The position numbers were made by a program, and so were the translations under genes. From an uncultured Candidatus Binatia bacterium (lineage in GTDB: Bacteria; Desulfobacterota; Binatia; Bin18), in NCBI GenBank assembly GCA_965200965.1, contig OZ241744.1, positions 2,528,001 through 2,592,000 of the forward strand: DNA of 64,000 nucleotides. The letters run 5' to 3'. How positions within the stretch are numbered: position 1 is the first letter of the stretch; each line of letters begins with the position of its first letter. Below are positions 6,354 to 56,866 of the stretch, one piece after another. The notes beneath the pieces were generated by a model. The model was given only the letters and a program-made list of their open reading frames with translations, made no database searches and was not told the DNA's origin.

Positions 6354-6404
6354 AAGGACGGAGCGTGTCGCCTTCCTCTCGCTCTGATGACACGCTCCGT
6401 CCTT
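6354..6404. repeat. Palindromic element family A (45-bp core 6357-6401), upstream of or in the N-terminus of mgtE
   Basis: Perfect 16-bp inverted repeat AAGGACGGAGCGTGTC/GACACGCTCCGTCCTT with 19-nt loop. Confidence 0.9.
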
Positions 6405-6413
6405 GCATACACC

Positions 6414-23909: not shown

Positions 23910-25542
23910 GACCGATCCGCCGATCGCGCATTTCTCCCCCAGCTTTTCCCGACTGAGTGCCGCCATTATCGCTTGGCCGATCCTCGCCTGCCTGGGTCTG
24001 CTGGGCCTGACGGGTTTCTTTGCCCTGCCCGCCCAGAGCCGCCCGGCCTGGCTGTGGTATGTTGGGCTGGGGCTGGGACTGGCCGCACCGCTGGGCGCAG
24101 TCCGCCTGAGCCGACGCCTAGCCAGACGCCTAGCCGACTTCCAGGCTCTCATTACACTCGCCCCAGAACATAGCCCGCCGCCCGCCGCCACGCAAGACGG
24201 AACATATCATCGGATCGAACGGAAGGCGACACATTCCGTCCTTGATGAACTCGGCGCGGTCGAAGACAGCCTGTGCCAGTTTCTCCACGCCCAGCACGAG
24301 CGGTTGCGATGTGTACACGATGCGCGCCACGATCTCGAAGTAGTGCTCCAGAGCATGACCGAAGGCGTCATCGTGTTGGACGCCAACAGCCGCATCCGCT
24401 TCTCCAACCGTGCCGCCCACGCTCTCTTGGGCCTGTCTGAAGAAGCCGACTTCCAGGCCAGACCCCTGTTGGAACTTTCCCGGCATCCCGTTCTCCACGA
24501 CATGGCCCGGGCCGTGCTTGACAGCCCGGCCGGGGCCGAGGCCCTGACCCAGGAGATCGAGATAGAGGGAGAGCAGCCCCGCTTGCTGGCGGTCAGCACC
24601 ATTCAGATGAAGGTCTCAGGTATGGCTTTGAAACCGGGGGTCATTCTGGCTCTGCACGATCTGACCGAACTCAAACAGCTCGAAGCCGTGCGGGCCGACT
24701 TTGTGGCCAATGTCTCGCACGAGCTGCGCACGCCGCTGACCGCCATCAAGGGCTATGCCGAGACCCTGCTGAACGGCGTACTCAACGACCCCCCTGTTGC
24801 AACACGCTTTCTGGCCATTATCGACCGTCACTCCGAGCGTCTCAGCCGGCTGATTGACGACCTCTTAACCCTGTCCGATCTTGAGCGGGGCAAAACCGAA
24901 CTGCGCCGCGACACCATCGTGTTCAGCCACCTGCTTGACGAGGTGTTCGAGCTGGTCAAAGACAAGGCCGCCAGCGGTCAGGTGCGGCTGAACGCTGCGC
25001 TGCCGGCCTCCCTCCCCTTGCTGTGTGGCGACGCCGACCGGCTCCACCAAGTCTTGCTGAACCTAGTTGACAACGCCGTCAAATATACCCCCTCGGGCGG
25101 GCGGGTGACGGTCTCCGCGCGTGCGTCCTGTCTTCCTCCTGGCGACCGGCCCGTCCTGGCGGAAACCCCAGACCCGACCGCGGATGCTGAGCATCATCTG
25201 AATCCACAAGAACTCAGCGAGGACGGAACGTGTCGCCGTCATGTCAATCTGATGACACGTTCCGTCCTCGCCCACTTTGACAGCACGGGCTGGCTGGAGG
25301 TGGCGGTTGTCGATACCGGCTGCGGCATTCGCGCAGCCGATATTCCACGCCTCACCCAGCGCTTTTACCGGGTTGATAAGGCTCGCTCACGCGAACTGGG
25401 CGGGACCGGCCTCGGCCTGTCGATTGTCAAACATATTGTGCAGGCCCACGGCGGATTTTTTCATATCGAGAGCCAGCTCGACCAAGGAACGACGATGCGG
25501 GTCTTTTTGCCGCTCGGCAACAAACCCAACTCAGGACGCTGA
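23890..25542 (+). CDS. phoR: Phosphate sensor histidine kinase with repeat-derived inserts
   Basis: PAS domain, DFVANVSHELRTPL, NLVDNAVKY, RFYRVDKARSR, GGTGLGL. Confidence 0.92.
   Translation: MPWKTTKTDPPIAHFSPSFSRLSAAIIAWPILACLGLLGLTGFFALPAQSRPAWLWYVGLGLGLAAPLGAVRLSRRLARRLADFQALITLAPEHSPPPAATQDGTYHRIERKATHSVLDELGAVEDSLCQFLHAQHERLRCVHDARHDLEVVLQSMTEGVIVLDANSRIRFSNRAAHALLGLSEEADFQARPLLELSRHPVLHDMARAVLDSPAGAEALTQEIEIEGEQPRLLAVSTIQMKVSGMALKPGVILALHDLTELKQLEAVRADFVANVSHELRTPLTAIKGYAETLLNGVLNDPPVATRFLAIIDRHSERLSRLIDDLLTLSDLERGKTELRRDTIVFSHLLDEVFELVKDKAASGQVRLNAALPASLPLLCGDADRLHQVLLNLVDNAVKYTPSGGRVTVSARASCLPPGDRPVLAETPDPTADAEHHLNPQELSEDGTCRRHVNLMTRSVLAHFDSTGWLEVAVVDTGCGIRAADIPRLTQRFYRVDKARSRELGGTGLGLSIVKHIVQAHGGFFHIESQLDQGTTMRVFLPLGNKPNSGR
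24196..24240. repeat. Palindromic element family A, in frame in phoR
   Basis: GACGGAACATATC...GACACATTCCGTC, 45 bp, encodes DGTYHRIERKATHSV. Confidence 0.9.
25217..25271. repeat. Palindromic element family A (core 25222-25266), in frame in the phoR ATPase domain
   Basis: Perfect 18-bp inverted repeat; encodes DGTCRRHVNLMTRSV. Confidence 0.92.
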
Positions 25543-26334
25543 GCGCTCGAGCGCTTGCAAAATTAAACCCGCCGCCCCCGATTCCCCCCACACGCTCGCA
25601 TCGATCAGCAGGTGATAGCGGCTCGGGTCACGCCAGTCCCCGTGGTAGAAGGTGTGAACATAGTCGCCGCGCAGCCGGTCCATGCCGGCGATCCGTTGCG
25701 CGGCTTCGTCACCCGACAGGCTCTCAATTTCCATCACCCGCTCAATACGCGCCTGGAGCGGGGCGGTGAGAAAGATGTGCAGGGCGGCGGGCTGCCCGGC
25801 CAGCACATAATTGCCGCCCCGGCCAACAATAATCGCCTGTCCGCCCTCGGCCACCTCTTCAATCAGCGACCGGGTCATGCGGACGAGCTGAGCGTCGTTG
25901 AGCCACAGCGGCGGTGGAATGTCGTAGGCCGATTCAAAGCCACCCATGCCGAACAGCCCGACCATGCGCTCAATAAAGGAATCGACCCGTTCGTCCTTGG
26001 CGTCCACATACTCTTCCGACACCTTGTACTGGCTGGCGATTTTACGAACGATTTCTTTTTCCCACACGGTCCAGCCCAAACGCTGGCCGAGGGCACGGGC
26101 GATACGGTTCCCGCCGCTGCCGTACATATGAGAAATGGTCAGGACCGACTTAGTGCCGCAAAGACACCGAGGAGTGAACGTGTCATCAGAGCGACATGAC
26201 GGCGACACGTTCACTCCTTTCGGCCTGTCTTCCTCTTGGCGAGCGGGTGGTGCGATTGGTCTTTGAGCCATAGCGGCCTCCTTCACAGCGGGGATGTTCT
26301 CAGCCAGAGAGCGGTCATCGGTCTCTTGAGACAT
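25531..26334 (-). CDS. Cytidylate kinase-like family protein
   Basis: LTISHMYGSGG, IIVGRGG, R...Y...Y..DW.DP..YHL.ID; N-terminal extension is repeat-derived and the start is uncertain. Confidence 0.85.
   Translation of the reverse strand: MSQETDDRSLAENIPAVKEAAMAQRPIAPPARQEEDRPKGVNVSPSCRSDDTFTPRCLCGTKSVLTISHMYGSGGNRIARALGQRLGWTVWEKEIVRKIASQYKVSEEYVDAKDERVDSFIERMVGLFGMGGFESAYDIPPPLWLNDAQLVRMTRSLIEEVAEGGQAIIVGRGGNYVLAGQPAALHIFLTAPLQARIERVMEIESLSGDEAAQRIAGMDRLRGDYVHTFYHGDWRDPSRYHLLIDASVWGESGAAGLILQALERSAS
26170..26246. repeat. Family A element (core 26172-26216) next to a family B core (26224-26246)
   Basis: 15-bp perfect inverted repeat AGGAGTGAACGTGTC/GACACGTTCACTCCT, then CCTGTCTTCCTCTTGGCGAGCGG. 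Confidence 0.85.
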
Positions 26335-27001: not shown

Positions 27002-27820
27002 TTACTGTGGTGCCATCCGAATCGCGCCGTCGAGACGGATGGTCTCTCCGTTCAACATCACGTTTTCCACGATATGACAGGCCAGCGCGGCGTATTCGGC
27101 CGGCGTGCCTAGGCGCTGGGGAAACGGAATACTGGCACCGAGGGACTGGCGGGCCACTTCGGGCAAATCCATCAGCATCGGGGTTTCAAAGATCCCCGGC
27201 GCAATTGTACAGCAGCGGATGCCGTCCCGGGCCAAGTCACGGGCAATCGGCAAGGTCATGCCCACCACCCCGCCTTTTGAGGCCGAGTAGGCCGCCTGTC
27301 CGATCTGGCCGTCGAAGGCGGCAACCGAGGCGGTGTTGATGATCACGCCCCGTTCGCCGTCCGCGGTCGGCTCGTTTTTGGCCATCTGGGCGGCGGCCAG
27401 CCGGATGGTATTGAAGGTTCCGATCAGGTTGACCTCGATTGTGCGTCTGAACGGCCCGAGAGCCAGGGGCGTGCCTTGAGGACGGAACGTGTCACCTTCC
27501 GTTCGATCTGGTGACACGTTCCGTCTTTTGCCCAGGGTCCGGCCGGCGGTCGCAATACCTGCGCAGTTGATGAGCGCGTGGATGGTGCCAAAGGCGGCGA
27601 CCGTCTTGTCAATGGCCGCTGCGGTCTGGTCTTCGTCGGTCACGTCGGCCTCAAGAAACCTCGCGCTCTCGCCCAACTCATGGGCGAGCTCTGCCCCGCG
27701 TGAACGGCCAAGGTCAAGGATGGCGACCTTGGACCCTCTGGCCGTCAGGGCGCGGCTCGTGCCCTCGCCGAGTCCGGAGCCGCCCCCGGTCACAACAGCA
27801 ACGGTGTTCTGTATATCCAT
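27002..27820 (-). CDS. SDR family 3-hydroxyacyl-CoA dehydrogenase (HSD17B10-like)
   Basis: [32 protein letters not shown]. Confidence 0.93.
27481..27525. repeat. Palindromic element family A, in frame in the SDR gene
   Basis: Perfect 16-bp inverted repeat; encodes [15 protein letters not shown]. Confidence 0.93.
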
Positions 27821-33367: not shown

Positions 33368-34112
33368 GGCTCAGCGGCTCCTGGGACCGGGTGAGGATAT
33401 CGACCAGGGTCTCGGTGTACTCTTCGGTCAGCCGGGTCAGGTGTCGGACCCGGCTGGTGAGGTGATGATAGAGCAGATAGTATGGAATGGTCACACTCAG
33501 GCCGGCCGCGGTGGTGATCATGGCTTCGTAGATACCGCCGGCCAGGATGTTAATGGTAATCTGATCGCCCATGACCTCCCAACTCATAAAGGCGCGGATC
33601 AGACCGATGATTGTGCCCAGAAAGCCCAGCATCGGCGCGACCCCGACCACCGCCGCCAGGACGCTCAGATAGGACTCCAGACCGGCAACGACATCGCCAC
33701 CGAGACGTTCGAGACGCCGGGTCAACTCGCCGCGGCCGTGCTCACGGTACACAATGGCGGCTTCAAACAGCCGGCTGAGCGGGCTGGTGTATTCACGACA
33801 GACGCCAAGGGCGATTGAGATATTGCCCTCGGCCAACTGGGGTTCAATACGCTGGTTGAGGGCGTTGAGGTGCTTCCGAAACCGCCACAGGGACCAGAGT
33901 TTCGCCAGCACAATGGCAAGGGCTACGACTGACAGAGCGGCGATGATGAGCAGGACCACGCCGCCTTTGGCCAGAAAAAACCAGACTCCCTGGTCTGTTG
34001 GTAAAATCGTGATGGCCTTTCGCCCTTGCTGTACAGACGCCTCGCCTGTTTTCCGCTTGGCGAGCGGTGAGGACGGCTCGTCTTTGTCAGACTTCACAAT
34101 TCTTGGTGACAA
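33357..34112 (-). CDS. exbB: MotA/TolQ/ExbB proton channel protein
   Basis: APMLGFLGTIIGLI, GGIYEAMITTAAGL; start uncertain; N-terminus contains a family B element (34034-34086). Confidence 0.88.
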   Translation of the reverse strand: MSPRIVKSDKDEPSSPLAKRKTGEASVQQGRKAITILPTDQGVWFFLAKGGVVLLIIAALSVVALAIVLAKLWSLWRFRKHLNALNQRIEPQLAEGNISIALGVCREYTSPLSRLFEAAIVYREHGRGELTRRLERLGGDVVAGLESYLSVLAAVVGVAPMLGFLGTIIGLIRAFMSWEVMGDQITINILAGGIYEAMITTAAGLSVTIPYYLLYHHLTSRVRHLTRLTEEYTETLVDILTRSQEPLSHAV

Positions 34113-36549
34113 AGTCCTGGATCTGTTTTTTGAGCTGCGGGTCTCCCAGCCGGTTCAGCATGGCCCGGGTGCCGCGGGCGGTACGACAGCCGGCCTGGGC
34201 GTTGCCGAGTGAGGCGTTGAGGACGGCGACTTCATACGAGCCACGAAACCAGATCGGGTCTCCGACCTGTGAATCCTGGAGCATTTCTTCCCAGTAAGCC
34301 AGCGCTTGCTGTTTGTCGTCGTTGACCTCGGCGATGTGGGCGAGGCCGGCCAGCGAGACCAACGAATAGGCCCCGTCCTGGAGTTCGGTATACAGGGCCG
34401 CGGCCCGGTCGTAGTCTTTGACGTCCAGGTAGAGTTGGGCCAGTTCGTATTTGAACTTGTCCTGGGATTCGTCGGCGGCAAAGTCCTGGCGGGCAATTTT
34501 ATCGCTGTACAGGCGGACCAGGGTGCGCTTGGCGGCCTGGAGGTTTTCTCCAGGGGAATCGTCTGGTCTTCCGCTCGAAAGCTCAGGACGATTCATCTGC
34601 TTTGTCAGGGTCCGAATATCCCGGACTAAGACCTGGTCAAGGGCTTTGAGCAACTCAAGACGCTTGTCGCCGTTATAGTTGGCGAAGATGGCCTCTACGT
34701 TTTTTTCCAGTTCTTTGAACCGGCCGGCTTTCTCCAGGGTAATCAGCCGGACGCGGGCGACGGTTTCAAAGGCATCTTTGTGGACCGGATACTGCTGCTC
34801 GAAGTCGTGCAGCAGGTCGGCGATCTGGACGGCGTTGGCATCGATATCTTCGCTGAGCAGAACTGCATGCATGAACTTGACCCGGCCGCGGTAGTTCCTG
34901 AGATTTTCGCGTTTTTTGCCCTTGGGATTCTGCTGCTCAAACGCAGCGCTGCTCCGCTCAAAGGAGACGAGGGTATCGGCGATTCGCTGTTTGAGCTCGT
35001 CGAGACTGATGCCCGGGTCTTTGGCCGGTGCTTCTTGGCGCAACGCTGCATCGTCTTGTGACTGGTCAGGGCTATTCGTCTTGTGTTCGTAGATCGAAAA
35101 GTAGCTCTGGAGGGTGGCAAAATCGGCCCGGAAGCGAAATTCGATATTACCGCGCACCTGCCGATAGGCATTGACGGCTTCGAGATAGTTTTCCTGCCCG
35201 TGATGGTACTCACCGAGTCGAAAGTGTGCCTCGTGCAGAGCTTTTGAGCGGTTTTTGGTATCGCGCCTGATCAGGTCTCTGGCCGAATCCACATACAGGC
35301 GACCGTTGGCCTGATTCTGTGAGCGGGCAAACAAGGTCTCGGCGGCCTTGAAACGCAGGTAGGCAGCGTTGATCACATTTTTGGACGGCTTGCCACCCAG
35401 GTAGCTGTCGAGGGCGGTTATCGCTTGGCGCAGCCTGCCAGTCCTCACCAGGGCGTCGCCGAGATAATACTGGGCGTCCTGCTTGTAGCGCTGGGCGCGG
35501 GGGTCATCTGACTCCAGAACCGTCCGCAGCAGCGGAATGGCCTTGGCGTGCCGGCCTTGCCGAATAAAGGTCGCCGCGTTGTTCCACGGCAGGTAAGGGT
35601 TGAGGGTCAGCTTTTCGTCTTCGTTGAGTTCTTTGGCCAGCAGCGTATCGGCCCTGTTCTTCCACGAGTCGTCGGCGTCTTGGGATTCTTTGACCCCCAA
35701 TACCAGGCCGATTGCCCGCTCACGCGTCTTGTTGCGCTGCTTGCCCCGTTCTTGCTGGCTGCGCTCAAACAGGCCGGTGGCTTCGGCCAACTGTTGTTCG
35801 AGCAGGTCCTCAGCCGTGGGACCTTGGCGGGGCCGGCGGCCGCTCCTGGCCAGCCGGCGGGTCTCTTTCAGCGCGTTGCGGACCTTGGTACGCATGCTGG
35901 GGCTGGTTGCCCGATCTTGCAATAGCGCCTCAAAGTCTCTGATCGCCCAGTCATACTCGCCCAGTTCCCGCTCGCTCAGGGCGCGGCCGAACAGGGTTTC
36001 GCGTTTGACGTTGGACGCCGGCCCGGAGGCAAACTCGGAGAAGCCGTTAATCGCGTCTTTGAGCATTTGGGTTTGCCGCTTGCCCTCATGCACAAAGGAG
36101 CCGATATAGTTGAGCCAGTTCAGAAAATACAACGATCGGGCAGCCACATCCTGGGCGTCTCTCCAGCGGGCCTCTTCGTACAGCGCCTCAAGGTCGTCGT
36201 CAACGGCCATGATGTCTTGCATCCAGCGCTCCATAGCGTCGGTGTTGGCCTTGTAGATGGCGTGCAGAGGCGCGTTCAGGTCGGTATAAATCTGCCGCAC
36301 GGTTGAGCGCTTGGTCTTGACTGCGCTGGCCAGATCAGAGGCGGCCACAAACTCCATGACCAGCGGCCCGATGACGGCGATGGCGTCAAGCTGTCCGTCC
36401 TTGCCGGTGTTCTTCAACTCGTTGGCGCGATTTTTTGCCTGGACAGCACGCGACGACAAGTCTGAGATCGTCGCCGCACCGCTTGACCCGGGATCTGTCA
36501 GACCGGACGCCAGGGCCAAAAGACAAGTTATGACAATGATGCGTCGCAC
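34087..36549 (-). CDS. Exported TPR-like alpha-helical protein
   Basis: Signal peptide; TPR-like segments (AQYYLGDALV, AHFRLGEY, YELAQLY). Confidence 0.8.
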   Translation of the reverse strand: MRRIIVITCLLALASGLTDPGSSGAATISDLSSRAVQAKNRANELKNTGKDGQLDAIAVIGPLVMEFVAASDLASAVKTKRSTVRQIYTDLNAPLHAIYKANTDAMERWMQDIMAVDDDLEALYEEARWRDAQDVAARSLYFLNWLNYIGSFVHEGKRQTQMLKDAINGFSEFASGPASNVKRETLFGRALSERELGEYDWAIRDFEALLQDRATSPSMRTKVRNALKETRRLARSGRRPRQGPTAEDLLEQQLAEATGLFERSQQERGKQRNKTRERAIGLVLGVKESQDADDSWKNRADTLLAKELNEDEKLTLNPYLPWNNAATFIRQGRHAKAIPLLRTVLESDDPRAQRYKQDAQYYLGDALVRTGRLRQAITALDSYLGGKPSKNVINAAYLRFKAAETLFARSQNQANGRLYVDSARDLIRRDTKNRSKALHEAHFRLGEYHHGQENYLEAVNAYRQVRGNIEFRFRADFATLQSYFSIYEHKTNSPDQSQDDAALRQEAPAKDPGISLDELKQRIADTLVSFERSSAAFEQQNPKGKKRENLRNYRGRVKFMHAVLLSEDIDANAVQIADLLHDFEQQYPVHKDAFETVARVRLITLEKAGRFKELEKNVEAIFANYNGDKRLELLKALDQVLVRDIRTLTKQMNRPELSSGRPDDSPGENLQAAKRTLVRLYSDKIARQDFAADESQDKFKYELAQLYLDVKDYDRAAALYTELQDGAYSLVSLAGLAHIAEVNDDKQQALAYWEEMLQDSQVGDPIWFRGSYEVAVLNASLGNAQAGCRTARGTRAMLNRLGDPQLKKQIQDFVTKNCEV

Positions 36550-38991: not shown

Positions 38992-39010
38992 CTGCTGTCC
39001 TCCTTTTGTG

Positions 39011-39622: not shown

Positions 39623-39639
39623 AGTATACCCTTCCTGAA

Positions 39640-39789
39640 ATAGTTTGCGTAGACTATGGGGGAAGATCAAAAAGCAATAAAATGACCCTGGTGATAACCT
39701 GTATTGGTACTGAACCGTATCCAGTGGGGGGGCTTGACAGGGCTTTGTACTGAGGTGTTACCCTCCTCGAAATAGTTTGCGCAAACCAT
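39640..39789. promoter_or_regulatory. Two 18-bp palindromic operators (39640-39657, 39772-39789) upstream of padR
   Basis: ATAGTTTGCGTAGACTAT and ATAGTTTGCGCAAACCAT; minus-strand TTGACA at 39810-39815. Confidence 0.7.
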
Positions 39790-39867
39790 ATAGGCGAAGC
39801 TTGGGCTTTTGTCAAGAAAAATTTGAAGAAAAATACTCGGTGCTGTTTTCGTCACGGAGAATGGGGA

Positions 39868-40623
39868 TTATGTTAAACGGTCTTTCGCAACCATCCCCCG
39901 CTCGCGCAGTAAATTGAGGATGATATCGAGGCTGTGGTCCCACAGCTTGACCTTGAGTTGGTCGTACAGGGTGAAGTTGGCCAGCCTTAACATGGGCTGC
40001 TCAGCGACAAAGTCGATGATATTGATGCAGCCAAAGTCCTGATCAATGTTGAACACCCGCCCGTCGTTGATACCCAGAGCCGAAGCCAGCAGGGCGTTAT
40101 TGCTGCCGCCGTGGGCGACGACGAGCAACGTCCGCCAGTCGGCCTGGGCCAGGACTGTACGCAGAAACCGCTCCCCGCGTTCCCGGACTTGGCGGAAACT
40201 CTCGCCGCCCAGATACCGATCGTCCCAGCCGGTGGTCGGACTGGTGAAGAACCGATGCACGGACCGGAAAATATCGGTCAGGCTTTGTGCTGCGGTCAGT
40301 GCATCACTTGGCGTGATCTCTGTCAGGTCTGGATCGAGGCTGACTTCAAGGCCCGTCTCGTCGGCAATAATCTGGGCCGTTTCGTGGGCACGCGACAGCG
40401 GGCTGGAATAGATGCGATCGAGCCGGACGGCGCGAAACAGCAGGGCCGCGGTGGCGATCTGCTCCCGCCCGCGCTCGGTCAGTGCCCCGTTGCCGATCGC
40501 GCTCTCGTTGGTGGTCTGCGAAGACGCATCGTCCTGTCTTCCTCCTGGCGAACGGTGAGGACGATCCGTCTTTTGATAGAGGGTTTCCCCGTGGCGCATG
40601 AGATAGATCCGGCGGCGCGGCAT
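39868..40623 (-). CDS. Histidine phosphatase (phosphoglycerate mutase) family protein
   Basis: YLMRHGET, YSSPLSRA, GESF, VAHGG. Confidence 0.92.
   Translation of the reverse strand: MPRRRIYLMRHGETLYQKTDRPHRSPGGRQDDASSQTTNESAIGNGALTERGREQIATAALLFRAVRLDRIYSSPLSRAHETAQIIADETGLEVSLDPDLTEITPSDALTAAQSLTDIFRSVHRFFTSPTTGWDDRYLGGESFRQVRERGERFLRTVLAQADWRTLLVVAHGGSNNALLASALGINDGRVFNIDQDFGCINIIDFVAEQPMLRLANFTLYDQLKVKLWDHSLDIILNLLRERGMVAKDRLT
40521..40572. repeat. Palindromic element family B, in frame in the histidine phosphatase
   Basis: 15-bp arms with 1 mismatch; encodes KTDRPHRSPGGRQDDAS. Confidence 0.92.
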
Positions 40624-40699
40624 GGTATTCTCCCTCAATACTGATCGTCTTGTTTTCCTGATCAAGCTGTTAAGGCAATTCATCTTTTACGCTGAAGTG

Positions 40700-42274
40700 C
40701 TAATACGCCTTGGCAAAAATGACCCGCCGCCGGCTCGGCTGACCGCTCAGCACGCACACGCCCTCCTCTTCCGGGGCACCCAGCGGAAGACACCGGATGG
40801 TGACGTTCAGATCGTTTTTGAGCGTCTCTTCTACCTCGGGTTGCCCGTTCCAATGGCTGAGGGCAAAGCCAGCGTGAATCTCTGGTTTGTCCCGCCGCTG
40901 CGAAGACGCATCGTCCTGTCTTCCTCCTGACGAACGGCGAGGACGATCTGTCTTTGGAGTGAAGAAGTCGTACAGGTCGACCTTGGAGTCAATGCGGTGC
41001 GTATGCTGATCCCGAAAGCTGCGGGCTCGATCGAACAGCGTGTGCTGAATGTTGTCGAGTTGGGATATCAGCGTTGCCACAAACTCGACCCGCGACTGGC
41101 TGAAGCGCTCCGACTGCGGTCGGTCGCGGCGACCGACAAAAACCGCGTCATTTTCCAGTTCACGCTGGCCGACCTCAAGGCGGATGGGCACGCCTTTTTT
41201 AATCCACGACCAGACCTTTTCTCCACCCGGGGCGTCCCGCACATCAAGTTCGACCCCGAGGGGCTGGTCATCGTAGCGCAAGGTCCGCAGTTCCCAGGCC
41301 AGACCCTCGCAGTAGGCCAGAATCTCGGCCCGATTCTCCTTGCGCAGCAGGGGCAGAATAACGACATGGCGGGGGGCCAGTCTGGGCGGCAGGACCAAGC
41401 CGTTATCGTCACTATGGGTCATGATCAAGCCACCGATGAGGCGGGTTGATACTCCCCACGAGGTGGTCCAGGCGTAGGTTTCCTGGCCGCTGGTGTCGGA
41501 GAATCGAATTTCAGACGACCGGGCGAAATTCTGGCCTAAAAAATGTGAGGTGCCGGCCTGGAGTGCCTTGCGGTCCTGCATCATGGCCTCAATAGAATAG
41601 GTGGCCACTGCGCCGGGGAAGCGCTCGCTCTGCGTCTTCTCGCCCTTGATGACCGGCATCGCCATGTACCGCTCGGCAAAATCGGCGTACACGTCAAGCA
41701 TCCGGGCGGTCTCTTGTTGGGCTTCCTGCGCGGTGGCGTGGACGGTGTGGCCCTCCTGCCACAGGAATTCCGCGGTACGCAGAAAAATACGCGGCCGCAT
41801 CTCCCAGCGCACAACGTTGGCCCACTGATTGATCAGCAGCGGCAGATCACGGTAGGACTGGACCCACTTGGCAAATGTCGCCCCAATAATAGTTTCAGAG
41901 GTGGGGCGGACAACCAGAGGCTCAGTCAACTCCCCTGATGGGACGAGGTGGCCGTCCGGTCCGGCCTCCAGCCGATGGTGGGTCACCACCGCGCATTCTT
42001 TGGCAAAGCCTTCGACGTGCTCGGCTTCTTTTTGCAGAAAGCTGAGCGGAATAAAGAGCGGAAAGTAGGCGTTTTGATGGCCGGTAGCCTTGAACATACC
42101 GTCTAAGACCCGCTGGATGTTCTCCCACAGGCTATAGCCCCACGGCTTAATGACCATACAGCCCCGGACCGCTGAGGTTTCGGCCAGGTCGGCAGCCCGA
42201 ATGACCTGCTGATACCACTCGGTGTAGTCTTCCGCTCGGGTTGGAGAAATCGCCGTCTTCAAGGCTCGCTTCAT
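40700..42274 (-). CDS. proS: Proline--tRNA ligase (archaeal/eukaryotic type)
   Basis: VRPTSET, NQWANVVRWE, FLWQEGHT, QAGTSHFLGQNF, C-terminal FAKAY. Confidence 0.97.
   Translation of the reverse strand: MKRALKTAISPTRAEDYTEWYQQVIRAADLAETSAVRGCMVIKPWGYSLWENIQRVLDGMFKATGHQNAYFPLFIPLSFLQKEAEHVEGFAKECAVVTHHRLEAGPDGHLVPSGELTEPLVVRPTSETIIGATFAKWVQSYRDLPLLINQWANVVRWEMRPRIFLRTAEFLWQEGHTVHATAQEAQQETARMLDVYADFAERYMAMPVIKGEKTQSERFPGAVATYSIEAMMQDRKALQAGTSHFLGQNFARSSEIRFSDTSGQETYAWTTSWGVSTRLIGGLIMTHSDDNGLVLPPRLAPRHVVILPLLRKENRAEILAYCEGLAWELRTLRYDDQPLGVELDVRDAPGGEKVWSWIKKGVPIRLEVGQRELENDAVFVGRRDRPQSERFSQSRVEFVATLISQLDNIQHTLFDRARSFRDQHTHRIDSKVDLYDFFTPKTDRPRRSSGGRQDDASSQRRDKPEIHAGFALSHWNGQPEVEETLKNDLNVTIRCLPLGAPEEEGVCVLSGQPSRRRVIFAKAY
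40903..40954. repeat. Palindromic element family B, in frame in proS
   Basis: Near-identical to 40521-40572; encodes KTDRPRRSSGGRQDDAS. Confidence 0.92.
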
Positions 42275-42298
42275 GCCGCTCCTCCTCTCAGCAGAGGG

Positions 42299-43000: not shown

Positions 43001-43726
43001 CTACTGTTGAAAATGTTTCTTCCCGTATTTGGAAAAATAGTAAAGGATTGATCGTTCAGCAATATCCTTCATAATCGTAGTCATTTCGGCGACTGTCCAT
43101 TGTCTCTCTCGGAAATAGAAACTTCCCCTGTTGAATTTTCCGTCCTCAAGATTGTGGAGATGTGTTTTATTCAGTTCGCCAAACATTGCCATTGTAGATA
43201 CGCGATCCAAGACTGACGATCCCTCTTCAAAATCGCACCCGTAGCCAAAACAAACGAATGGGAAGATGCTCTCCCGCATGAGAGCTGTTCGCAACCCTAT
43301 CAGGTTCTTGCCAAGACGCTCAATGGCGTTGCCACGCGCCTGTCTCCCTAATCCTTCCTTCGCGCGTAAATCATTCGTCCCTTGATTCTTCACTTCCGAA
43401 ATCAGAATTGGGAAGACCAGATTGTCGCCCTGTTTGCCCCGGATATAGAGGAAACCGCCATCCGGGCGTATAAAGCTGGTGTCGGAGTGATGGTGGAAAT
43501 TGACCCCGCCGCCACTGTGGCTATACTGAAGCTCACGAACGATGTCACGAAGATACCACGACTTATCGTGAACAAATTTGATGCTTTGGAACTTTTCATC
43601 AAGGTACTTGGCTACGTTAGAGAGCGCTACTATTAAGTCCGTTTCCTGACTCTTGGCAGTAGTATTAATTACGGTGCCAGTGCGTTGACTTCGCAATTGG
43701 GTTTTTCGTGCCATGCCCGTTGTCAC
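43001..43726 (-). CDS. Type II restriction endonuclease, EcoRI-like
   Basis: PDGG...ISEVKNQG catalytic motif and GNAIER segment as in EcoRI; AT-richer than flanks. Confidence 0.8.
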   Translation of the reverse strand: MTTGMARKTQLRSQRTGTVINTTAKSQETDLIVALSNVAKYLDEKFQSIKFVHDKSWYLRDIVRELQYSHSGGGVNFHHHSDTSFIRPDGGFLYIRGKQGDNLVFPILISEVKNQGTNDLRAKEGLGRQARGNAIERLGKNLIGLRTALMRESIFPFVCFGYGCDFEEGSSVLDRVSTMAMFGELNKTHLHNLEDGKFNRGSFYFRERQWTVAEMTTIMKDIAERSILYYFSKYGKKHFQQ

Positions 43727-46574: not shown

Positions 46575-47822
46575 ATGACGACCCACACCCTCATTGGCCT
46601 GATGTCCGGCACCTCGCACGACGGGATTGACGCCGCGCTGGTTGATATCAACTCAAAGACGAACCGTCCTGACCGTTTTCAGGTTCGTCAGCGGGCCTTT
46701 CGCGCTTTTCCGTATACGCGCCCAGTGCGTGAGCGTTTATTGCGGCTCAGTCAGGGCGCTGCGGTTCAGGCCGGTGAGGTCGCCCAGGTCAATGTGCTGC
46801 TGGGCGAACTGTTTGCCAAAGCCGCGCTCAAGCTGTGTCAGGCAGCCCATATCGCCTGCGACCGCGTGATGGCGATCGGTTCACACGGGCATACGATCTA
46901 CCATCAGCCCCGTCAGCGCCCAAGCCCCGGCTCTACCCTCCAAATCGGTGAGCCGGCCGTCATTGCCGCCCGGACGGGTATCACCACGGTGGCCGATTTT
47001 CGGCCCGCCGATCTGGCAATGGGCGGAGAGGGCGCGCCCCTCGTCCCCTATGTCCACCACGCCTTGTTTCACCAGCCCCGGCGGTCGGTCGCCGTCCACA
47101 ATATCGGCGGCATCGCCAACCTAACCTATTTGCCCGCCCACCACGCGCTCGACGGCGTCCTGGCCTTTGATACCGGCCCCGGCAATATGGTCATTGATGG
47201 GGTGGTTCAGGCGGTCAGCGGGGGAAAAAAGCTGTACGACAAAGGGGGGCGTATGGCTCGCCGGGGCAGGGTCCACAAGGCCCTCTTGGCCGAACTCTTG
47301 CGCCACCCATATTTTCGACGCCGGCCGCCCAAATCCACCGGCCGCGAGGAGTTTGGTGAGCCGTATATCCGACACTTCCTCAGCCGGGCTTCAGGGCTGA
47401 CTGCCGAAGATCAGGTTGCGACAGCCACCGCGCTGACGGTCGAAAGCATGGCCCGCGCCTACCGCAACTTTGTGTGCCGAAAGACGACTCGTCCTGACCG
47501 TTCGCACAGAGAAAGAGCGGACGACTCGTCTTTGCCGGGCACGCTGGATGAGATTGTGCTGACCGGTGGCGGAAGCCTCAACCCGGTGCTGGGTGAGTGG
47601 CTGGCCGAGGCGCTACTGCACATCCGTGTGCGGCCCTCGGAAGAACTCGGATTTGACAGTCAGGCCCTTGAGGCGCTGGCATTCGCGGTGCTGGCGTATG
47701 CAACGCTCCACGGCATAGCGTCGAATGTGCGGGGCGCAACAGGCGCTCGGGCACCGGTCGTTCTGGGCAAAGTGGCCCCGGGGCGCAACTATCGCACCAT
47801 GCGACTCATCTTGTCTTCCTGA
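46575..47822 (+). CDS. anmK: Anhydro-N-acetylmuramic acid kinase
   Basis: GLMSGTS.DGID, GSHG.T, DFR..D.A.GGEGAPLVP, NIGGIAN, FDTGPGN, PKSTGRE. Confidence 0.96.
   Translation: MTTHTLIGLMSGTSHDGIDAALVDINSKTNRPDRFQVRQRAFRAFPYTRPVRERLLRLSQGAAVQAGEVAQVNVLLGELFAKAALKLCQAAHIACDRVMAIGSHGHTIYHQPRQRPSPGSTLQIGEPAVIAARTGITTVADFRPADLAMGGEGAPLVPYVHHALFHQPRRSVAVHNIGGIANLTYLPAHHALDGVLAFDTGPGNMVIDGVVQAVSGGKKLYDKGGRMARRGRVHKALLAELLRHPYFRRRPPKSTGREEFGEPYIRHFLSRASGLTAEDQVATATALTVESMARAYRNFVCRKTTRPDRSHRERADDSSLPGTLDEIVLTGGGSLNPVLGEWLAEALLHIRVRPSEELGFDSQALEALAFAVLAYATLHGIASNVRGATGARAPVVLGKVAPGRNYRTMRLILSS
47480..47533. repeat. Palindromic element family B, in frame in anmK
   Basis: 54 bp, AAAGACGACTCGTCC...GGACGACTCGTCTTT; encodes KTTRPDRSHRERADDSSL. 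Confidence 0.88.
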
Positions 47823-52098: not shown

Positions 52099-53306
52099 AT
52101 GTCTATCCGGTACACACCGATGGTCTTTTTCCTGGCCGGATCGTAGTGCCGCCATTTTTCGGCCGGGACCTGTTCGGCCGTAACCCGCCGGAAGCCACTG
52201 CGTTCGAACAAACGCCGAGCCCCGGCCTGAGAGGTACAGGCAAACACATAGCCCAAACCAGCCGCCCGGGCCTGTTCCAGCATCGTCCCGACCAAACGGC
52301 CACCGATTCCCTCGCCCTGAAAACGGGTAATCGTATACAGCCCCGCGATTTCTGCAGCATTCTTCCTGGGATAGGGCAGCAGGGCACAGACCCCGGCCAA
52401 CTCTCCGCCGGCCGCTCCGAGACGGGCACAGTGTCCGTGGAACAGCAATTGACTGGTCTCTGTGTGGCTGCGAGGTTTGAGGCCGCCATCGCGTTCGCCA
52501 CGCCGGATCAGCCGCTCGGCTTCATAAAAGTCGTCTAATCCCAGCGGCTCTAGCCGGCAGTAATCGGTCAGGGTAAAGAGTGTCCCCTGCCCTTCATAGG
52601 TAAACAGTTCTCCCGCCACATCGGCCGGCCGACACAGCGAAACCGAGGCAACCCCACCCTCCAGGGCCGCCCGGACCGACGCCAGGACGCCCAAGTCTTT
52701 CTCTTGAACGGTGCGGACAGGCGGTGTTCCTGCCGCCCGGGATTGGTCCAGGAGTTTATTCAGCGCGGCCCCATTCATAAAAGACACGCGATTTCCTCTG
52801 ATGCAGAGACCACCGTTCGGGTCAAGGATGACGAGTTTATGGACCTTGAGACGAACGGCTAAACGTTGGGCCGGGGATTGCTCACCGACGCCAGGACGCC
52901 CAAAAGATGCATCGTCCTGTCTTCCCCTGGGACGATGCGCCTTTACCGGCCCGACGGTCCGCCTCTGAGGAGCCGGCCACAGGCCGACAAAGATCGGTGT
53001 TGTTCTGAGAACTGTCCATATGTGTTCCAAGACACTGTTTTCCTCGGCCGGCAACGCGACGAACCGGGCGGCCAGAGCGATGCGCAACAGTTCCAGCCCG
53101 GGTTGGTCCGAGTCGTCCGTTTCGATCAGAACGATCAGTCGCGTTTCGTTACGCGTCAACTGCTGGCAGACCTCGGCCATCGCCTTGACCGCTGCCGTGT
53201 CTCTCAGGTCTTCGGCCCGCAGGCTGAAAAAGAGACTCTTGCCGCAAAACTCTTTAAGGTAAAAGTCTTGTTCGATAAACGAAGCGGGCGTGAAGGTCTG
53301 GCTCAT
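52095..53306 (-). CDS. argA: Amino-acid N-acetyltransferase (ArgA-like: degenerate kinase-like domain plus GNAT)
   Basis: ELFTYEGQGT, AEIAGLY..RFQGEGIG. Confidence 0.8.
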   Translation of the reverse strand: MSQTFTPASFIEQDFYLKEFCGKSLFFSLRAEDLRDTAAVKAMAEVCQQLTRNETRLIVLIETDDSDQPGLELLRIALAARFVALPAEENSVLEHIWTVLRTTPIFVGLWPAPQRRTVGPVKAHRPRGRQDDASFGRPGVGEQSPAQRLAVRLKVHKLVILDPNGGLCIRGNRVSFMNGAALNKLLDQSRAAGTPPVRTVQEKDLGVLASVRAALEGGVASVSLCRPADVAGELFTYEGQGTLFTLTDYCRLEPLGLDDFYEAERLIRRGERDGGLKPRSHTETSQLLFHGHCARLGAAGGELAGVCALLPYPRKNAAEIAGLYTITRFQGEGIGGRLVGTMLEQARAAGLGYVFACTSQAGARRLFERSGFRRVTAEQVPAEKWRHYDPARKKTIGVYRIDI

Positions 53307-53338: not shown

Positions 53339-56300
53339 TCAGGTGGACATTCGCCTTTGTGCAAGCAGGGCTTGGGCGTCAGCCCGGGCCCGCTCGTCCC
53401 AGGCAAAGTGTATACCTGTGGACGAACGGACAAACAGGACCGCCAAGTCCTTTACAGGATAGGCGGTCAGTTGCTCAAGGGCGAGGGCATAGGCGTATAG
53501 CCCAGAGCGGCAGCGGGCGGCCTGACTTTCAGCTTGGCCGTCCGCAACAGCATCCGTCTTCAGATCAAGAATGACCCAGGCCTTGTTTTCAACAAAAGCC
53601 AGGTCGATCACGCCGTTCAGGACTATGTCCGTGTGGGGTGGGGCTTGATAATGCAGGCTGAAGGGCAGGTCGGCAAAACAGTCCTGGGCGGCGCGGGCCC
53701 TGCTCAGGAGCGGGCCGGTCAGGACGTTGCGGACGAAGCGTTGCAGGGGGGTGCCGGCGCTGACAGCAAAGGGAAGCGTGATCTCCTGTGTGTTACCACG
53801 ATTCCCCGTGCCGTCATTTGGGCGGTGGCTCGTTTTGATGCTCTGTTTCAACGCCATGCGCACGGCGCGGCCGAACTGCGGCTCTGCCCCTGGCGAGATG
53901 AATCGTCTCGTCTTCCGCTCGAAAGGTGAAGACGATTCATCTCTATCCCGAGGGTGATCAGAATCTTGGGTATGCTGGACCAGAGACTCGACGCTTAAGG
54001 TAAGCGACGATCTCTTCTCGATGAGGTGGTCTGCATTATACACGGTCTGGGGCTGTCTGCCCTGTTCTCTGATCGCCTGTTGATCGGCCTGCCAGGACTG
54101 GTAGCGCTCAAACGCGGACTGATTGGGCGGGACGGGGGGCCGCGGTCCTCCTGCGGCTGGGCGGCCGGCGGCGTGGAGAGGTGGGGGGTCTGGGGAGATG
54201 ATCGGCTTGGGTTCGGCGGCATTGAAGACCTGCCACAGGCTCTGGCCGGTGGTGCTTTCCAACTCGGGCAGCAGGGGCAAAATGAGCCGGTCGCGCGCCC
54301 GTGTTGCGGCGACATACCACAGGCGTCGCTCCTCGGCCTCCTCGCGGGCTCCCTCACGCGCCTCCGCCTCCCGCCAGCCGAGCGTATGCCAGGCCAGGGT
54401 CTGCGGACCGAGCCGCAGTTCGAGGTGCCCCCGGGGCTGGACAAGTCGGTCCCCTTCCGCCTCCTGAGGCGACGGCGGTTTGTGGCTGCGTTCGATCAGA
54501 CCGGTCCGGCTTGAGCGACCCGGGGCGAGGATTGCATCGGCAAGAATCACGACCGGAAACTCAAGTCCTTTGGCCTTGTGAATCGTCAGGAAGCGAACGG
54601 CCGGTCCATGCTCTTCTGCGACCGCCGCCTCGCCTTCCTCAGTCGCCCGGTGGTGATGAGCAAGAAAGCGGTTGAAGGCGCTCAGGCTGCGAACGCCCTG
54701 GTCAGCCAAGCTCTGGGCAAGCTCAATCAGTTTGATCAAGTTTGCCGTTCGCTGGCTCCCCTGGGGGCGGAGGGCAAACAGGGGCACGAGATGGGTCTGA
54801 TAGATATCGTACAACACCGTTGATGGGCTGCACTGCCGGGAGCGGGCGTACAGCTCGCGCAGCAACGCAAAAGCCGCTCCAAAGCGGTCCGCGTCCGGCA
54901 GCCCGGCCGGCGGGGCGTGGGTGTAGTCAAAGACTCCCCCGGCAGCGGCGAAGTGCAAGAGCGCTTCGTCTGAAAAGCCGAACAGGCACGACCGTAAGCT
55001 CGCTACCAGGGCGTTGCTGTCAGCCGGACTGTCGATGACACGCAGCAGCACACGGAGTTCCTCAACCTCGTCCCGAGTCATATACTGACGCCCGCCGAGA
55101 ATCTGATATGCGATAGCGGCACTCTGGAAGGCTTCCTCGTAGGCATCCATGGCGCGATAGGTACGGAACAGCACGGCAATGTCACCATACGCCTGGTCTC
55201 CCTGCCCGAGGCGGTGTTTGAGGAAGCCGGCCACGGTTTGGGCCTCTGCCCGGCGCAGGTCGTCACGCCCCGGCTGGGACGGCAGCAGGTCCGGGGGAAC
55301 TGGAACGGAGATGACCGTCTGTCCTTGGGCGGTCTGGCCCGTGTCTGTGCTGTGTTCTTCCTGTTCTTCGTGGCGGGTTGGCAGCAGTGGACGATAGCTG
55401 GGGGCATCTTCAGCAGTGTTGGGCGCAAACACGCGAGAAAACGTTTCGTTAATCCAGCTCAGAATTGGCGCTCGGGTCCGGAAATTGCTTGACAGGCTCA
55501 GCAGCGTTCCCTGGCTTTCGATAGTGGCCCGGACGAGATGATAGACGGCGAGATCGGCACGTCGAAAACGGTAAATGGACTGGTGTGGATCGCCGACCAG
55601 AAAAAGCTTGCCGGGTTTCAGGATAACGTGGCTCCAGGCGTGAGCCCGAGGCGTGTGTTCGGCCAAAAAGAAGATAATTTCGGCCTGGAGGGGATCGGTA
55701 TCCTGGAATTCATCAACCAGAAGAAAGTCGAATTTCTGCTGAAAATACCGGCGCACCTCCATATTGTTGGCCAGCAGGTCTCGGGTGTACAGCAGCAGGT
55801 CGGTAAAATCGAGAGACATCTGCTGGCGTTTTGCGTCGTCATACACTGCCAGATAGCCGCTCAGCCACCGGACAAGCGCAAGCGTGTGGTTATGCACCCA
55901 GGCCGCACGCGCCTTGCTGTGGGCGTCACGCAACTCGGCAAAACAACGCCGCACCTCATCCAGACGGAGGGTCGGCTGCCAGTGGGTTTTGTTGCCGACC
56001 CGCTCCGGCAACTCCAGCCGGCTGTACAGCAGACGCTCCCAAAGCGGGTCAGCGTCGCGGTCCGGCATTTGCCGGATGAGGTCCATCATCCGTACAAAGG
56101 CCCGGTCGCTCGGCTCTGTACACGCCGACCGGAGCTGAGACAAACGCCCGATGGACTGCCGAAAGCTATGCCGGAATTGGGCCAGGGGGGAGGCCAGCGG
56201 CTTGGGCAGGAGGGCCAAGCAGTCTCGCTGCTCAACAACAAAGTCACGCAAGGCCCGCAGATGGCTCAGGCTCAGACCGGCCCGGAGGGCTGTTTTCAGG

Positions 56301-56866
56301 AAAGCCGCAACGTCCTCATGTGAAGACGATGCGTATGGTCTTGCTCTTGGCGAGCGGTGAGGACGCTGCGGCTTTCTGTCCTGGCTTGACCCCATCTCTT
56401 GGGCCAGCCAGTCGCGCCAGGTTTGATCCTGGACGACCCGCCTGCCAACCCCGTCCAGGACGCTGAAATTCGGGTCGACCAACGCCTCCAGGGGCCGCTC
56501 GCGGAGTAACAGGGCGCAAAAAGCATGCACGGTCAGAATCGAGGCCCGTTCGAGTTGAAGACGCGCGGTGAGCAGATTACGCTGCTCGTCCTGGCCGAGC
56601 GGTGTGTTCAGGGCGGTGTCAATCTCGGTCCGCAACCGAATACGGAGTTCGGTCGCCGCCTTTTCGGTAAAGGTGATGGCAGCGATCCGATCCAGGCGGC
56701 TCCGACCGGTCCGAATCACCGTGAGCAGGCGTTGGAGCAGGACGCTCGTCTTGCCCGTGCCCGCCCCGGCTTCTACCAGGAAGCTGGTGTCGAGCTCACT
56801 CGCCGCCCGATCGCGCGGCTGAGCGTCACAGGCACGCGTGGTGTCCTGGTTGTCTGGGTTGCTCAT
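53339..56866 (-). CDS. addA: UvrD-like helicase/nuclease AddA
   Basis: VEAGAGTGKT, ITFTEKAA, VDEFQDT, TIHKAKGLEF, YVAATRA, GVIDL..DLK. Confidence 0.92.
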   Translation of the reverse strand: MSNPDNQDTTRACDAQPRDRAASELDTSFLVEAGAGTGKTSVLLQRLLTVIRTGRSRLDRIAAITFTEKAATELRIRLRTEIDTALNTPLGQDEQRNLLTARLQLERASILTVHAFCALLLRERPLEALVDPNFSVLDGVGRRVVQDQTWRDWLAQEMGSSQDRKPQRPHRSPRARPYASSSHEDVAAFLKTALRAGLSLSHLRALRDFVVEQRDCLALLPKPLASPLAQFRHSFRQSIGRLSQLRSACTEPSDRAFVRMMDLIRQMPDRDADPLWERLLYSRLELPERVGNKTHWQPTLRLDEVRRCFAELRDAHSKARAAWVHNHTLALVRWLSGYLAVYDDAKRQQMSLDFTDLLLYTRDLLANNMEVRRYFQQKFDFLLVDEFQDTDPLQAEIIFFLAEHTPRAHAWSHVILKPGKLFLVGDPHQSIYRFRRADLAVYHLVRATIESQGTLLSLSSNFRTRAPILSWINETFSRVFAPNTAEDAPSYRPLLPTRHEEQEEHSTDTGQTAQGQTVISVPVPPDLLPSQPGRDDLRRAEAQTVAGFLKHRLGQGDQAYGDIAVLFRTYRAMDAYEEAFQSAAIAYQILGGRQYMTRDEVEELRVLLRVIDSPADSNALVASLRSCLFGFSDEALLHFAAAGGVFDYTHAPPAGLPDADRFGAAFALLRELYARSRQCSPSTVLYDIYQTHLVPLFALRPQGSQRTANLIKLIELAQSLADQGVRSLSAFNRFLAHHHRATEEGEAAVAEEHGPAVRFLTIHKAKGLEFPVVILADAILAPGRSSRTGLIERSHKPPSPQEAEGDRLVQPRGHLELRLGPQTLAWHTLGWREAEAREGAREEAEERRLWYVAATRARDRLILPLLPELESTTGQSLWQVFNAAEPKPIISPDPPPLHAAGRPAAGGPRPPVPPNQSAFERYQSWQADQQAIREQGRQPQTVYNADHLIEKRSSLTLSVESLVQHTQDSDHPRDRDESSSPFERKTRRFISPGAEPQFGRAVRMALKQSIKTSHRPNDGTGNRGNTQEITLPFAVSAGTPLQRFVRNVLTGPLLSRARAAQDCFADLPFSLHYQAPPHTDIVLNGVIDLAFVENKAWVILDLKTDAVADGQAESQAARCRSGLYAYALALEQLTAYPVKDLAVLFVRSSTGIHFAWDERARADAQALLAQRRMST
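53895..53943. repeat. Palindromic element family B variant, in frame in addA
   Basis: Perfect 14-bp inverted repeat GAGATGAATCGTCT/AGACGATTCATCTC; related copy at 34556-34594. Confidence 0.82.
56300..56376. repeat. Palindromic element family B (long form), in frame in addA
   Basis: 19-bp arms with 1 mismatch; 56347-56375 is identical (29 bp) to 57432-57460 in addB. Confidence 0.85.

Follow-up and report, generated by a model that had tools for sequence, protein, structure and literature searches.

Short dispersed hairpin elements with covarying arms in a Candidatus Binatia genome, probably linked to mobility

The window analysed here is a 64,000-nucleotide stretch of the genome of an uncultured Candidatus Binatia bacterium (contig OZ241744.1, positions 2,528,001 to 2,592,000), and it carries the short hairpin-shaped inserts listed in Table 1. 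We compared this genome (G000) with that of a sister species (G007) and with further relatives (G004 and others). Many inserts sit within genes and leave the reading frame unbroken, a tolerance explained by their lengths of 51 and 54 nt, both multiples of three. In-frame hosts include proS, phoR, anmK, addA/addB, and an SDR gene, the orthologues of which are empty in G004 and others, and the ORFs of proS and similar essential genes remain open with the insert in place. Coding frames hold 31 of 92 family A copies, compared with 233 of 400 random positions, and are thus under-represented among the insertion sites. The arm sequences quoted in the first-pass annotation were all recovered at their coordinates. 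Of the arms that it described as having a matching opposite arm, those at 40521 and 56300 each contain one mismatch to their partner.

Table 1. Hairpin elements and remnants in the window, with their genic context and state in relatives.
Element	Positions	Strand	Description
Family C	5496..5547	+	Older 52-nt hairpin; exopolyphosphatase gene; slightly beyond the range of the first-pass annotation
Family A	6354..6404	+	51 nt, ends A...T, arm type ACGG, perfect 16-bp stem; directly 5' of probable mgtE start, within longer ORF 6303-7793
Family A	24193..24243	-	In frame, phoR
Family A	25219..25269	+	In frame, phoR; 18-bp stem at 25217-25271 counting flank pairs; terminal C is T in conspecific runs X11 and X12
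Family A	26169..26219	-	Arm type AGTG, ends A...C, 15-bp stem (26170-26218); nested in family B element, joint 105-nt insertion vs G004, ~26160-26264
Family A	27478..27528	+	Ends G...T; in frame, SDR dehydrogenase; 16-bp stem 27481-27525; blunt 51-nt insertion vs G004 and G007
Family A	29527..29577	+	Ends G...T; in frame, 1050-aa ORF; blunt 51-nt insertion
Family B	34035..34083	+	Profile match; 5' end of tolQ/exbB-like ORF
Family B	34552..34598	+	Profile match; in frame, TPR-type protein
Family B	40520..40573	+	54 nt, ends G...T; in frame, histidine-phosphatase gene; also in G007, G004 site empty
Degenerate family B	40635..40685	n/a	51-nt insertion vs G004; boundaries approximate
Family B	40902..40955	+	54 nt; in frame, prolyl-tRNA synthetase (proS); also in G007, empty in G001-G006 and G013
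Family B	47480..47533	-	54 nt; in frame, anmK; also in G007, G004 empty
Shortened family B	52902..52943	+	42 nt; in frame, argA-like gene
Family B	53894..53944	+	51 nt; in frame, addA; 14-bp stem 53895-53943
Family C remnant	53996..54043	+	addA
Family B with nested insert	56301..56375	+	In frame, addA; locus 75 nt longer than G004, G007 another 30 nt longer
Family D-like remnant	57228..57269	n/a	addB; 42-nt insertion vs G004
Family B remnant	58596..58637	+	In frame, addB; 45-nt insertion vs G004

Genome-wide, about 170 such inserts of 51-54 bases are dispersed, and four related families (A, B, C, and D) account for 173 non-redundant profile matches; the reversed genome, used as a decoy, gave no match for A, B, and C. 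Empty sites fix the element length at 51 nt for family A, and insertions measure 51 or 54 nt overall. The arms of 15-16 bp form inverted repeats at the element ends, and the element contains no transposase gene. Families C, B, and A represent successive bursts, and most family A copies are missing from the sister species. No two of the 74 family A 51-mers are identical, and near neighbours are more alike than distant copies: the 102 pairs less than 30 kb apart differ at 10.2 positions compared with 12.4 after permutation, a value that none of 10,000 permutations matched.

Empty orthologous sites of family A are best explained by blunt insertion, with offset 0 giving 43 mismatches at 18 G007 sites (52 and 50 at -1 and +1) and 32 mismatches at 11 G004 sites (36 and 40). 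Neither these 18 and 11 sites nor the family B sites revealed a target-site duplication, and target-derived end bases were rejected for family A from the empty sites. Alignment of the 74 copies oriented G...T revealed a loose quasi-palindromic target, K-C-N-N-Y^N-N-N-G-M, with C at -4 in 52 copies (p=5e-12), K at -5 in 55, and Y at -1 in 54, and with its mirror image present more weakly 3' of the site (G at +4 in 39 of 74 copies, p=1e-4). The C at -4 is present in 11 of 12 empty G007 sites. Copy-specific matching between target and arm was weak and not significant (best p=0.013 among 30 tests). The first-pass annotation had stated that pairing often reaches into copy-specific flanks, which was not borne out, as pairing over flank positions 1-15 equals chance or falls below it among 80 copies (16 pairs vs 22.7 expected at +/-1 and 23 vs 22.2 at +/-2, with the 51-nt boundary). 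In G007, where the orthologous site is empty (copy 2553220), both extra pairs cited for 25217-25271 are found already. The apparent extension into the flanks is mostly the element's own outer arm.

The end bases follow a rule of their own. Among 80 copies the termini are G and T in 28, A and C in 24, A and T in 14, and G and C in 4 (Fisher p=2e-5), i.e., the elements end in G...T on one strand with the loop lying either way round relative to these ends (28:24). Both loop polarities occur in each common arm type, and copy pairs with at most five core differences share polarity in 22 cases and oppose it in 23. Resident orthologues, by comparison, retained the loop orientation in all 27 scorable cases, with no flips. 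The G and T ends are likely to be reset at each insertion. Independent deamination of a G...C end pair was rejected as the source of the GT and AC termini, because the two ends are anti-correlated. Neither a gene-direction bias nor a replication-strand bias was found (G...T strand leading in 25 of 46 vs 21 of 46 copies outside the inverted segment, a comparison that later inversions could blur). Both strands fold equally well, so that no active strand can be named.

The central claim of the first-pass annotation, that copies differ from each other and yet stay self-complementary, is confirmed by the 74 family A 51-mers, in which 944 of 1110 arm cells are Watson-Crick. Shuffling the right arms among copies left 816 +/- 10 such cells, with a maximum of 866 in 5000 shuffles. 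Where both sides of an arm pair were altered, 105 of 117 pairs remained Watson-Crick (74 full-length family A copies). The covariation score was 0.396 compared with 0.140 for shuffled arms, and none of 500 shuffles reached it, in a sample of 17 copies (6 from the window and 11 from G007) whose kinship inflates the test; slid controls scored 0.114 or less. Among variants present in at least four copies, 198 of 242 cells were compensated at pairs 5-10 and 14, as opposed to 5 of 60 elsewhere, a tally based on 64 51-mers from G000 and G007 from which the boundary rule excludes A...T-ended copies. Compensated variants are thus limited to these mid-stem pairs, plus pair 3 between families, and sequence is kept at the stem foot (R-A-R-G), at pairs 11-13 and 15-16, and in much of the loop.

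These variants are common to lineages of copies. Haplotypes differ by adjacent multi-base jumps, e.g., from AGTG to ACGG, and the copies at 25219 and 26169 carry the same private loop variant on different arms. Mismatches can be inherited as well, with 0.30 shared per pair less than 5 kb apart compared with 0.11 for distant pairs; perfect pairing is therefore not required, nor does each move restore the arms. The annotation had named as its refutation separate subfamilies of many identical copies lacking per-copy compensation, and only the latter half of this description applies: private compensated variants do not exceed chance (4 vs 2.9 expected), but no copies are identical among the 74, and G000 holds 11 or more arm haplotypes with full self-complementarity, with further ones in G007. 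The covariation can consequently not be put down to two or three clonal subfamilies.

After insertion, pairing is not maintained. In 19 copies common to G000 and G007, a sample of mostly older B, C, and D copies with a single family A member, divergence amounts to 18% in arms, 18% in loops, and 12% in flanks. The same copies show 80 one-sided changes and 8 two-sided changes (8.5 expected if independent), and one of these eight is compensated. In a 1.25-kb stretch compared with conspecific contigs, all nine SNPs within elements are unpartnered. Mismatches on the mRNA strand are of the G.U type in 14 cases and of the A.C type in 28, so G.U is not enriched, and Rfam held no match for the element. 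With one-sided decay and arms that diverge as fast as loops, nothing indicates host selection on the hairpin or its repair once inserted. Of the origins proposed in the annotation, a hairpin selected in the host and template switching in resident copies thus find no support, whereas a link to mobility or insertion does, as the covariation sorts by copy lineage and loop-to-end orientation is random among close relatives. Among the joints listed for conspecific contigs from four runs (23800-42500), none removes a 51-nt element. A skip at 40511-40574 with eight other letters belongs to contigs of greater divergence and agrees with the empty site of the relatives.

We searched for the mobilising enzyme by protein profiles. 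The Y1/RAYT profile PF01797 had no match in G000, G007, or G004; its match in G006 is a RAYT flanked by a separate GTAG repeat that is also present in G000. PF02371 (IS110), PF13358 (IS630), and PF04754 (Rpn) did not match in G000 or G007, and PF04986 matched in none of the genomes searched and is therefore uninformative. PF00589 gave two matches in G000, the same pair as in all five genomes searched and presumed to be XerC/D, and PF00078 detected a single reverse transcriptase, which in G000 has an internal TAG. Of six Cas1 loci, five adjoin CRISPR arrays, whose repeats are unlike the element. No mobiliser, and no autonomous IS sharing the element's ends, turned up among the families covered. 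The element patterns had no match in JGI metagenomes or IMG/VR.

We think it fairly probable that these are non-autonomous mobile elements of 51 or 54 nt that insert bluntly, and that the covariation of their arms was fixed in donor lineages before insertion, likely because a copy must take the form of a single-stranded DNA hairpin for a putative enzyme to move it. Pairing is then likely to be needed for jumping and not for a task in the host; a requirement of a hairpin transposase for a paired stem has precedent (PMC8266576). Of this hairpin, the enzyme may recognise the stem foot as well as the inner stem or loop through their sequence, and the mid-stem through pairing only, in which case mid-stem variants would spread only after both arms match. 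With every move, the symmetric 49-nt core would be flipped, or would come from either of the two strands, and receive new G and T ends, and copies would tend to settle in the neighbourhood of the donor. The double changes may stem from template switching that occasionally happens in donors. Several results weigh against this reading: the profile searches for a mobiliser, the absence of a replication-strand bias, the equal folding of both strands, the inherited mismatches, the predominance of older families in the orthologue sample, and the gene conversion that could underlie part of the local likeness. More tentatively, we propose a DNA movement not previously described, in which the symmetric 49-bp core is set bluntly and in either orientation between fresh G/T ends at a quasi-palindromic target near the donor, by an enzyme that is no known transposase and may be host-encoded. 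If so, no smaller coding mobile palindrome would be as well mapped, and the element would illustrate how elements like the Rickettsia palindromic elements (RPE) insert 17-18 residues into proteins.

A rather doubtful alternative, which is compatible with donor-fixed covariation, is purely mutational homogenisation, in which polymerase template switching between the arms, while a donor or a transfer intermediate is copied, writes one arm onto the other and inverts the loop, so that selection for pairing need not be invoked. Template switching is reported to yield both arm homogenisation and spacer inversion (PMC8604942), both of which are seen in the elements, and the multi-base jumps between haplotypes fit. 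However, resident copies show neither effect, compensation is concentrated at pairs 5-10 and 14 instead of covering the whole arm, and the G...T ends are left unexplained. A 50:50 flip between near-identical copies would moreover require a switch in almost all moves, whereas such copies keep inner mismatches (2377119 vs 2391137). Less likely still are ordinary MITEs, whose arm types would serve as terminal inverted repeats of distinct but related transposases that act on double-stranded DNA; both ends would then fit one protein and give the look of compensation. Terminal inverted repeats, lack of coding capacity, successive bursts, and a target with the partial symmetry expected of a dimer (C at -4, G at +4) agree with this, but the absent target-site duplication and the private loop variant on different arms (25219 and 26169) do not, and the paired haplotypes of G000 and G007 would need many enzymes. 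Furthermore, none of 32 extra arm matches is a lone arm bounding a larger element (assessed by eye over 50 flanking nt), and the self-comparison matches listed include no multi-copy repeat of IS size. That the host selects the hairpin for its RNA or DNA structure (for mRNA stability, pausing, or protein binding), with compensation after insertion, is very improbable: this would account for the strong covariation score and has a parallel in compensatory changes of the transcribed bcr1 repeat of Bacillus (PMC3184786), but arms decay like loops and faster than flanks, A.C-type mismatches outnumber G.U, and double changes mostly lack compensation, while coding-frame copies are under-represented, most family A copies are missing in the sister species, and Rfam has no match.

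IS200/IS605 peel-and-paste elements likewise leave no target duplication, and, in IS200/IS605-like fashion, the target sequence preceding the G end (K-C-N-N-Y) is similar to the 3' end of the Binatia element itself (K-C-C-T-T). In IS608 and ISDra2, hairpins are recognised and the cleavage site is chosen via base pairing (PMC8266576). An IS200/IS605 derivative would use a fixed target of 4-5 nt directly 5' of its insertion point, where the Binatia elements have the loose K-C-N-N-Y. The Binatia elements differ in that a single hairpin makes up the element from end to end, their loose target extends in part to both sides, and the genome encodes no Y1 transposase; IS608 and ISDra2 target the lagging-strand template (PMC6006769), and the Binatia elements show no strand bias. 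REP/REPIN with RAYT (TnpA-REP; GTAG and CGTC superfamilies) are short hairpins, too, some of them in frame within genes such as recB, uvr genes, and tRNA synthetases (PMC3733652), and their stem pairing matters for cleavage (PMC8266576). Unlike these, the Binatia elements have no unpaired GTAG or CGTC tag in their flank base counts and no RAYT in G000 or G007. GACG/CGTC occurs solely inside the paired arm, in some subtypes. Prokaryotic MITEs (Correia/NEMIS, ERIC, RUP, bcr1) share non-autonomy, terminal inverted repeats, and a stem-loop, but the Binatia elements lack target-site duplication and TA ends, are GC-rich and shorter, and have no partner IS found.

The elements resemble RPE and work like them, although we do not file them as such. 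RPE of Rickettsia, and coding palindromes of Wolbachia and Methanocaldococcus jannaschii, are likewise dispersed, in frame in unrelated conserved genes, and without a transposase of their own (PMC10969869, PMC2229807). RPE are longer (105-146 nt; PMC2229807), and their hosts belong to another phylum than Ca. Binatia. Target duplication is entered as '?' for RPE in PMC2229807, as compared with none at the Binatia empty sites, and end resetting and loop flipping are not described for RPE in the excerpts of PMC10969869 and PMC2229807. The means by which coding palindromes such as RPE move is left open in these two reviews, and a transposase is without experimental support according to PMC2229807. 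Here, sister genomes provide filled and empty sites for dozens of copies, which fixes the ends, the absent target duplication, and the target motif. A further, unexpected rule is that the loop takes its orientation anew with respect to the G...T ends; all of these are concrete constraints for the hunt for the enzyme. The elements also carry a warning for RNA-motif screens, as strong genome-wide hairpin covariation can stem from mobility without any host-selected structure.

Regarding the local likeness of copies, gene conversion between neighbours was considered and is weak overall, with locus-sorted sites dominating in pairs less than 10 kb apart (53 vs 17 species-sorted vs 7 control sites). 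The weak excess of species-sorted over control sites (17 vs 7, 10 pairs) might account for part of the likeness, and the 40520/40902 pair alone looks converted.

The two arms of the family-A hairpins covary, and the arm sequences quoted in the first-pass annotation were all found in the window. From 92 family-A matches, 91 could be placed, 84 passed a loop filter, and 80 also passed an end filter; removal of five B-type copies and one misregistered copy left 74. In this set, 105 of 117 two-sided arm changes were compensated, i.e., both arms had changed and still formed Watson–Crick pairs, and 944 of 1110 arm cells were Watson–Crick, compared to 816 ± 10 after shuffling. A structure-pair test on 17 copies gave the same answer. 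With the pairs counted from stem foot (1) to loop (16), compensation is restricted to pairs 5–10 and 14: common variants were compensated in 198 of 242 cells there and in 5 of 60 elsewhere. The compensated variants are common to several copies, and only four private compensated types were found (2.9 expected from a per-site decay of 7.5%). No two of the 74 copies were identical, and 11 self-complementary haplotypes occurred over pairs 5–10. One private loop variant is found with two arm types (see table), so loop and arms can recombine. Pairing had also been thought to extend into copy-specific flanks, a claim that is refuted: at each of the 15 positions examined past the 51-nt boundary, pairing was at the chance level or lower, and the extra pairs at 25217–25271 were already present in the empty site, i.e., they are older than the insertion.

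Once inserted, the hairpin is neither maintained nor repaired by the host. Among 95 elements with an ortholog in the sister-species genome G007, 19 were filled in both genomes and passed the pairing and identity filters, which would bias, if at all, toward compensation; one of these 19 pairs belongs to family A. Divergence was 18% in arms, 18% in loops, and 12% in flanks, with 80 one-sided and eight two-sided changes (8.5 expected), one of the latter compensated. Conspecific contigs revealed nine SNPs inside elements over 1.25 kb, all unpartnered, and at least two more unpartnered SNPs in A copies. Mismatches in 27 in-frame copies, read on the mRNA strand, comprised 14 of the G·U type and 28 of the A·C type.

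Empty orthologous sites (18 in G007 and 11 in the relative G004) gave a length of 51 nt for family A, offset 0 having the fewest mismatches, and no target duplication was seen in this comparison. Most clean family-B insertions measured 54 nt (13 cases) or 51 nt (5 cases). When 74 A and B copies were oriented according to their terminal bases, flank position −5 was K in 55 of them, −4 was C in 52, −1 was Y in 54, +4 was G in 39, and +5 was M in 48. Family C, whose 52-nt hairpin often has C...G ends, usually shows a net insertion of 51 nt; at about 4–5 of some seven readable empty sites, one end base equals a base pre-existing in the target, which looks as if the extra end base pairs with the target base. 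The terminal bases of the 80 loop-aligned A copies were G...T in 28, A...C in 24, A...T in 14, and G...C in 4 (p = 2e-5). As A...C is G...T on the opposite strand, the loop sits either way round between a fixed G and T. Each common arm type contains both polarities, close relatives agreed in 22 cases and disagreed in 23, as in a coin toss, and copies 2377119 and 2391137, with two core differences between them, have opposite ends. Loop flips were absent from resident orthologs (0 vs. 27 unflipped; ten more gave no clear call, none being scored inverted). The simplest reading would be that polarity is fixed afresh at each insertion.

We favor a folded single-stranded intermediate recognized by a putative enzyme, which would read sequence at the stem foot and inner stem, and the mid-stem by pairing alone. 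This view draws on the positions where compensation is allowed, on blunt insertion, and on the resemblance between the target K-C-N-N-Y and the 3′ end of the element itself, reminiscent of the guide-based site choice of HUH transposases as outlined in PMC8266576. Against it count the lack of a Y1 enzyme in a profile search of G000 (the genome holding the window) and G007, the lack of a replication-strand bias of the elements, and the ability of mismatched copies to spread. The main rival is template switching, which, as outlined in PMC8604942, can homogenize arms and invert spacers alike; it may also contribute alongside a folded intermediate. The eight protein families searched, among them Y1/RAYT, IS110, IS630, and Rpn, yielded no mobilizer candidate, and no connection to the elements was found for the reverse-transcriptase gene at locus L161.

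Iterated profile searches of G000 (3.62 Mb, single contig) gave 92 matches for family A, 41 for B, 46 for C, and 4 for D, merging into 173 non-redundant elements; the A, B, and C profiles had zero matches in the reversed-genome decoy. There are further copies, more degenerate: the window alone has 20 extra weak matches (E up to 0.5), some of them likely chance. All families have R-A-R-G...C-Y-T-Y-like ends and a pyrimidine-rich loop. The family-A pattern matched 38 times in G000, five times in G007, and in none of the 29 other relatives searched. Among 151 genomes of the class, three carried the family-C pattern, each belonging to the genus of G000. A separate search placed this pattern at ten loci in five records, every one titled Candidatus Binatia or Binatota; the 1.2 Mb examined of G004 contained 18 family-C matches and none of A or B. 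G007 sites were empty for most A copies and filled for most B, C, and D copies, and the families are therefore successive bursts. Sponge metagenomes are the source of several sequencing runs containing the window. Copies less than 30 kb apart were more alike than expected by chance and shared mismatches more frequently, which suggests short-range hopping; gene conversion is a possible partial source of this likeness.

Within the window, 15 of the 19 main matches fall in ORFs, including proS, phoR, anmK, addA, and addB. Genome-wide, 31 of 92 family-A copies lie inside coding frames vs. 233 of 400 random positions (strict rule), and in-frame copies are therefore tolerated survivors, not a favored outcome. 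REP inserts are known from recB and uvr genes, according to PMC3733652. Nested elements also exist, e.g., at 26169 and 56301 of the window. Rickettsia palindromic elements, as summarized in PMC10969869 and PMC2229807, work in the same way; the Binatia elements are one third to half as long. They differ from GTAG/CGTC REPs in the defining tests given in PMC3733652, and from MITEs in lacking the target duplication. In the literature listings and abstract openings covered, this family was not reported from Binatia, nor was end resetting. G000 has a separate GTAG-type REP family despite the absence of a RAYT gene, and this repeat also flanks the RAYT of the relative G006.

Coordinates of elements and neighboring features in the window and in G000
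Feature	Position	Observation
Family-A copies with a common private loop variant	window 25219–25269; 26169–26219	different compensated arms (ACGG vs. AGTG)
Neighboring copies	window 40520–40573; 40902–40955	each nearer to the other than to its own G007 ortholog (three species-sorted sites, one locus-sorted), suggesting gene conversion across 382 bp
Family-C examples	window 5496–5547; L158:2000–2051	52-nt hairpin
Repair genes addA and addB	window 53339–60327	~10 element copies or remnants, every one in open frame
Two adjacent ORFs	window 43001–44916	putative type II restriction endonuclease and adenine methyltransferase, from their translations
Highest element density	G000 2.2–3.0 Mb, window included	20, 38, 22, and 17 matches per 200 kb vs. 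2–13 elsewhere
GC-skew minimum; dnaA	G000 2.48 Mb; 2.70 Mb	close to the element-dense region
Inversion	G000 2.483–2.675 Mb	relative to G007
Reverse-transcriptase gene (L161)	G000 2404925–2406298	broken by internal TAG; G007 ortholog open
GTAG-type REPs	G000 ~84031, 1548015, 1750693, 3576273	
Five CRISPR arrays	G000 1.69, 2.07, 2.22, 2.82–2.83, 3.37 Mb	each with its own cas1; up to ~224 repeats
Broken cas1	near G000 0.68 Mb	
Two very large arrays	G000 271–306 kb; 1131–1165 kb	~2.4-kb repeats, 85–95% identity, probably encoding giant repeat proteins
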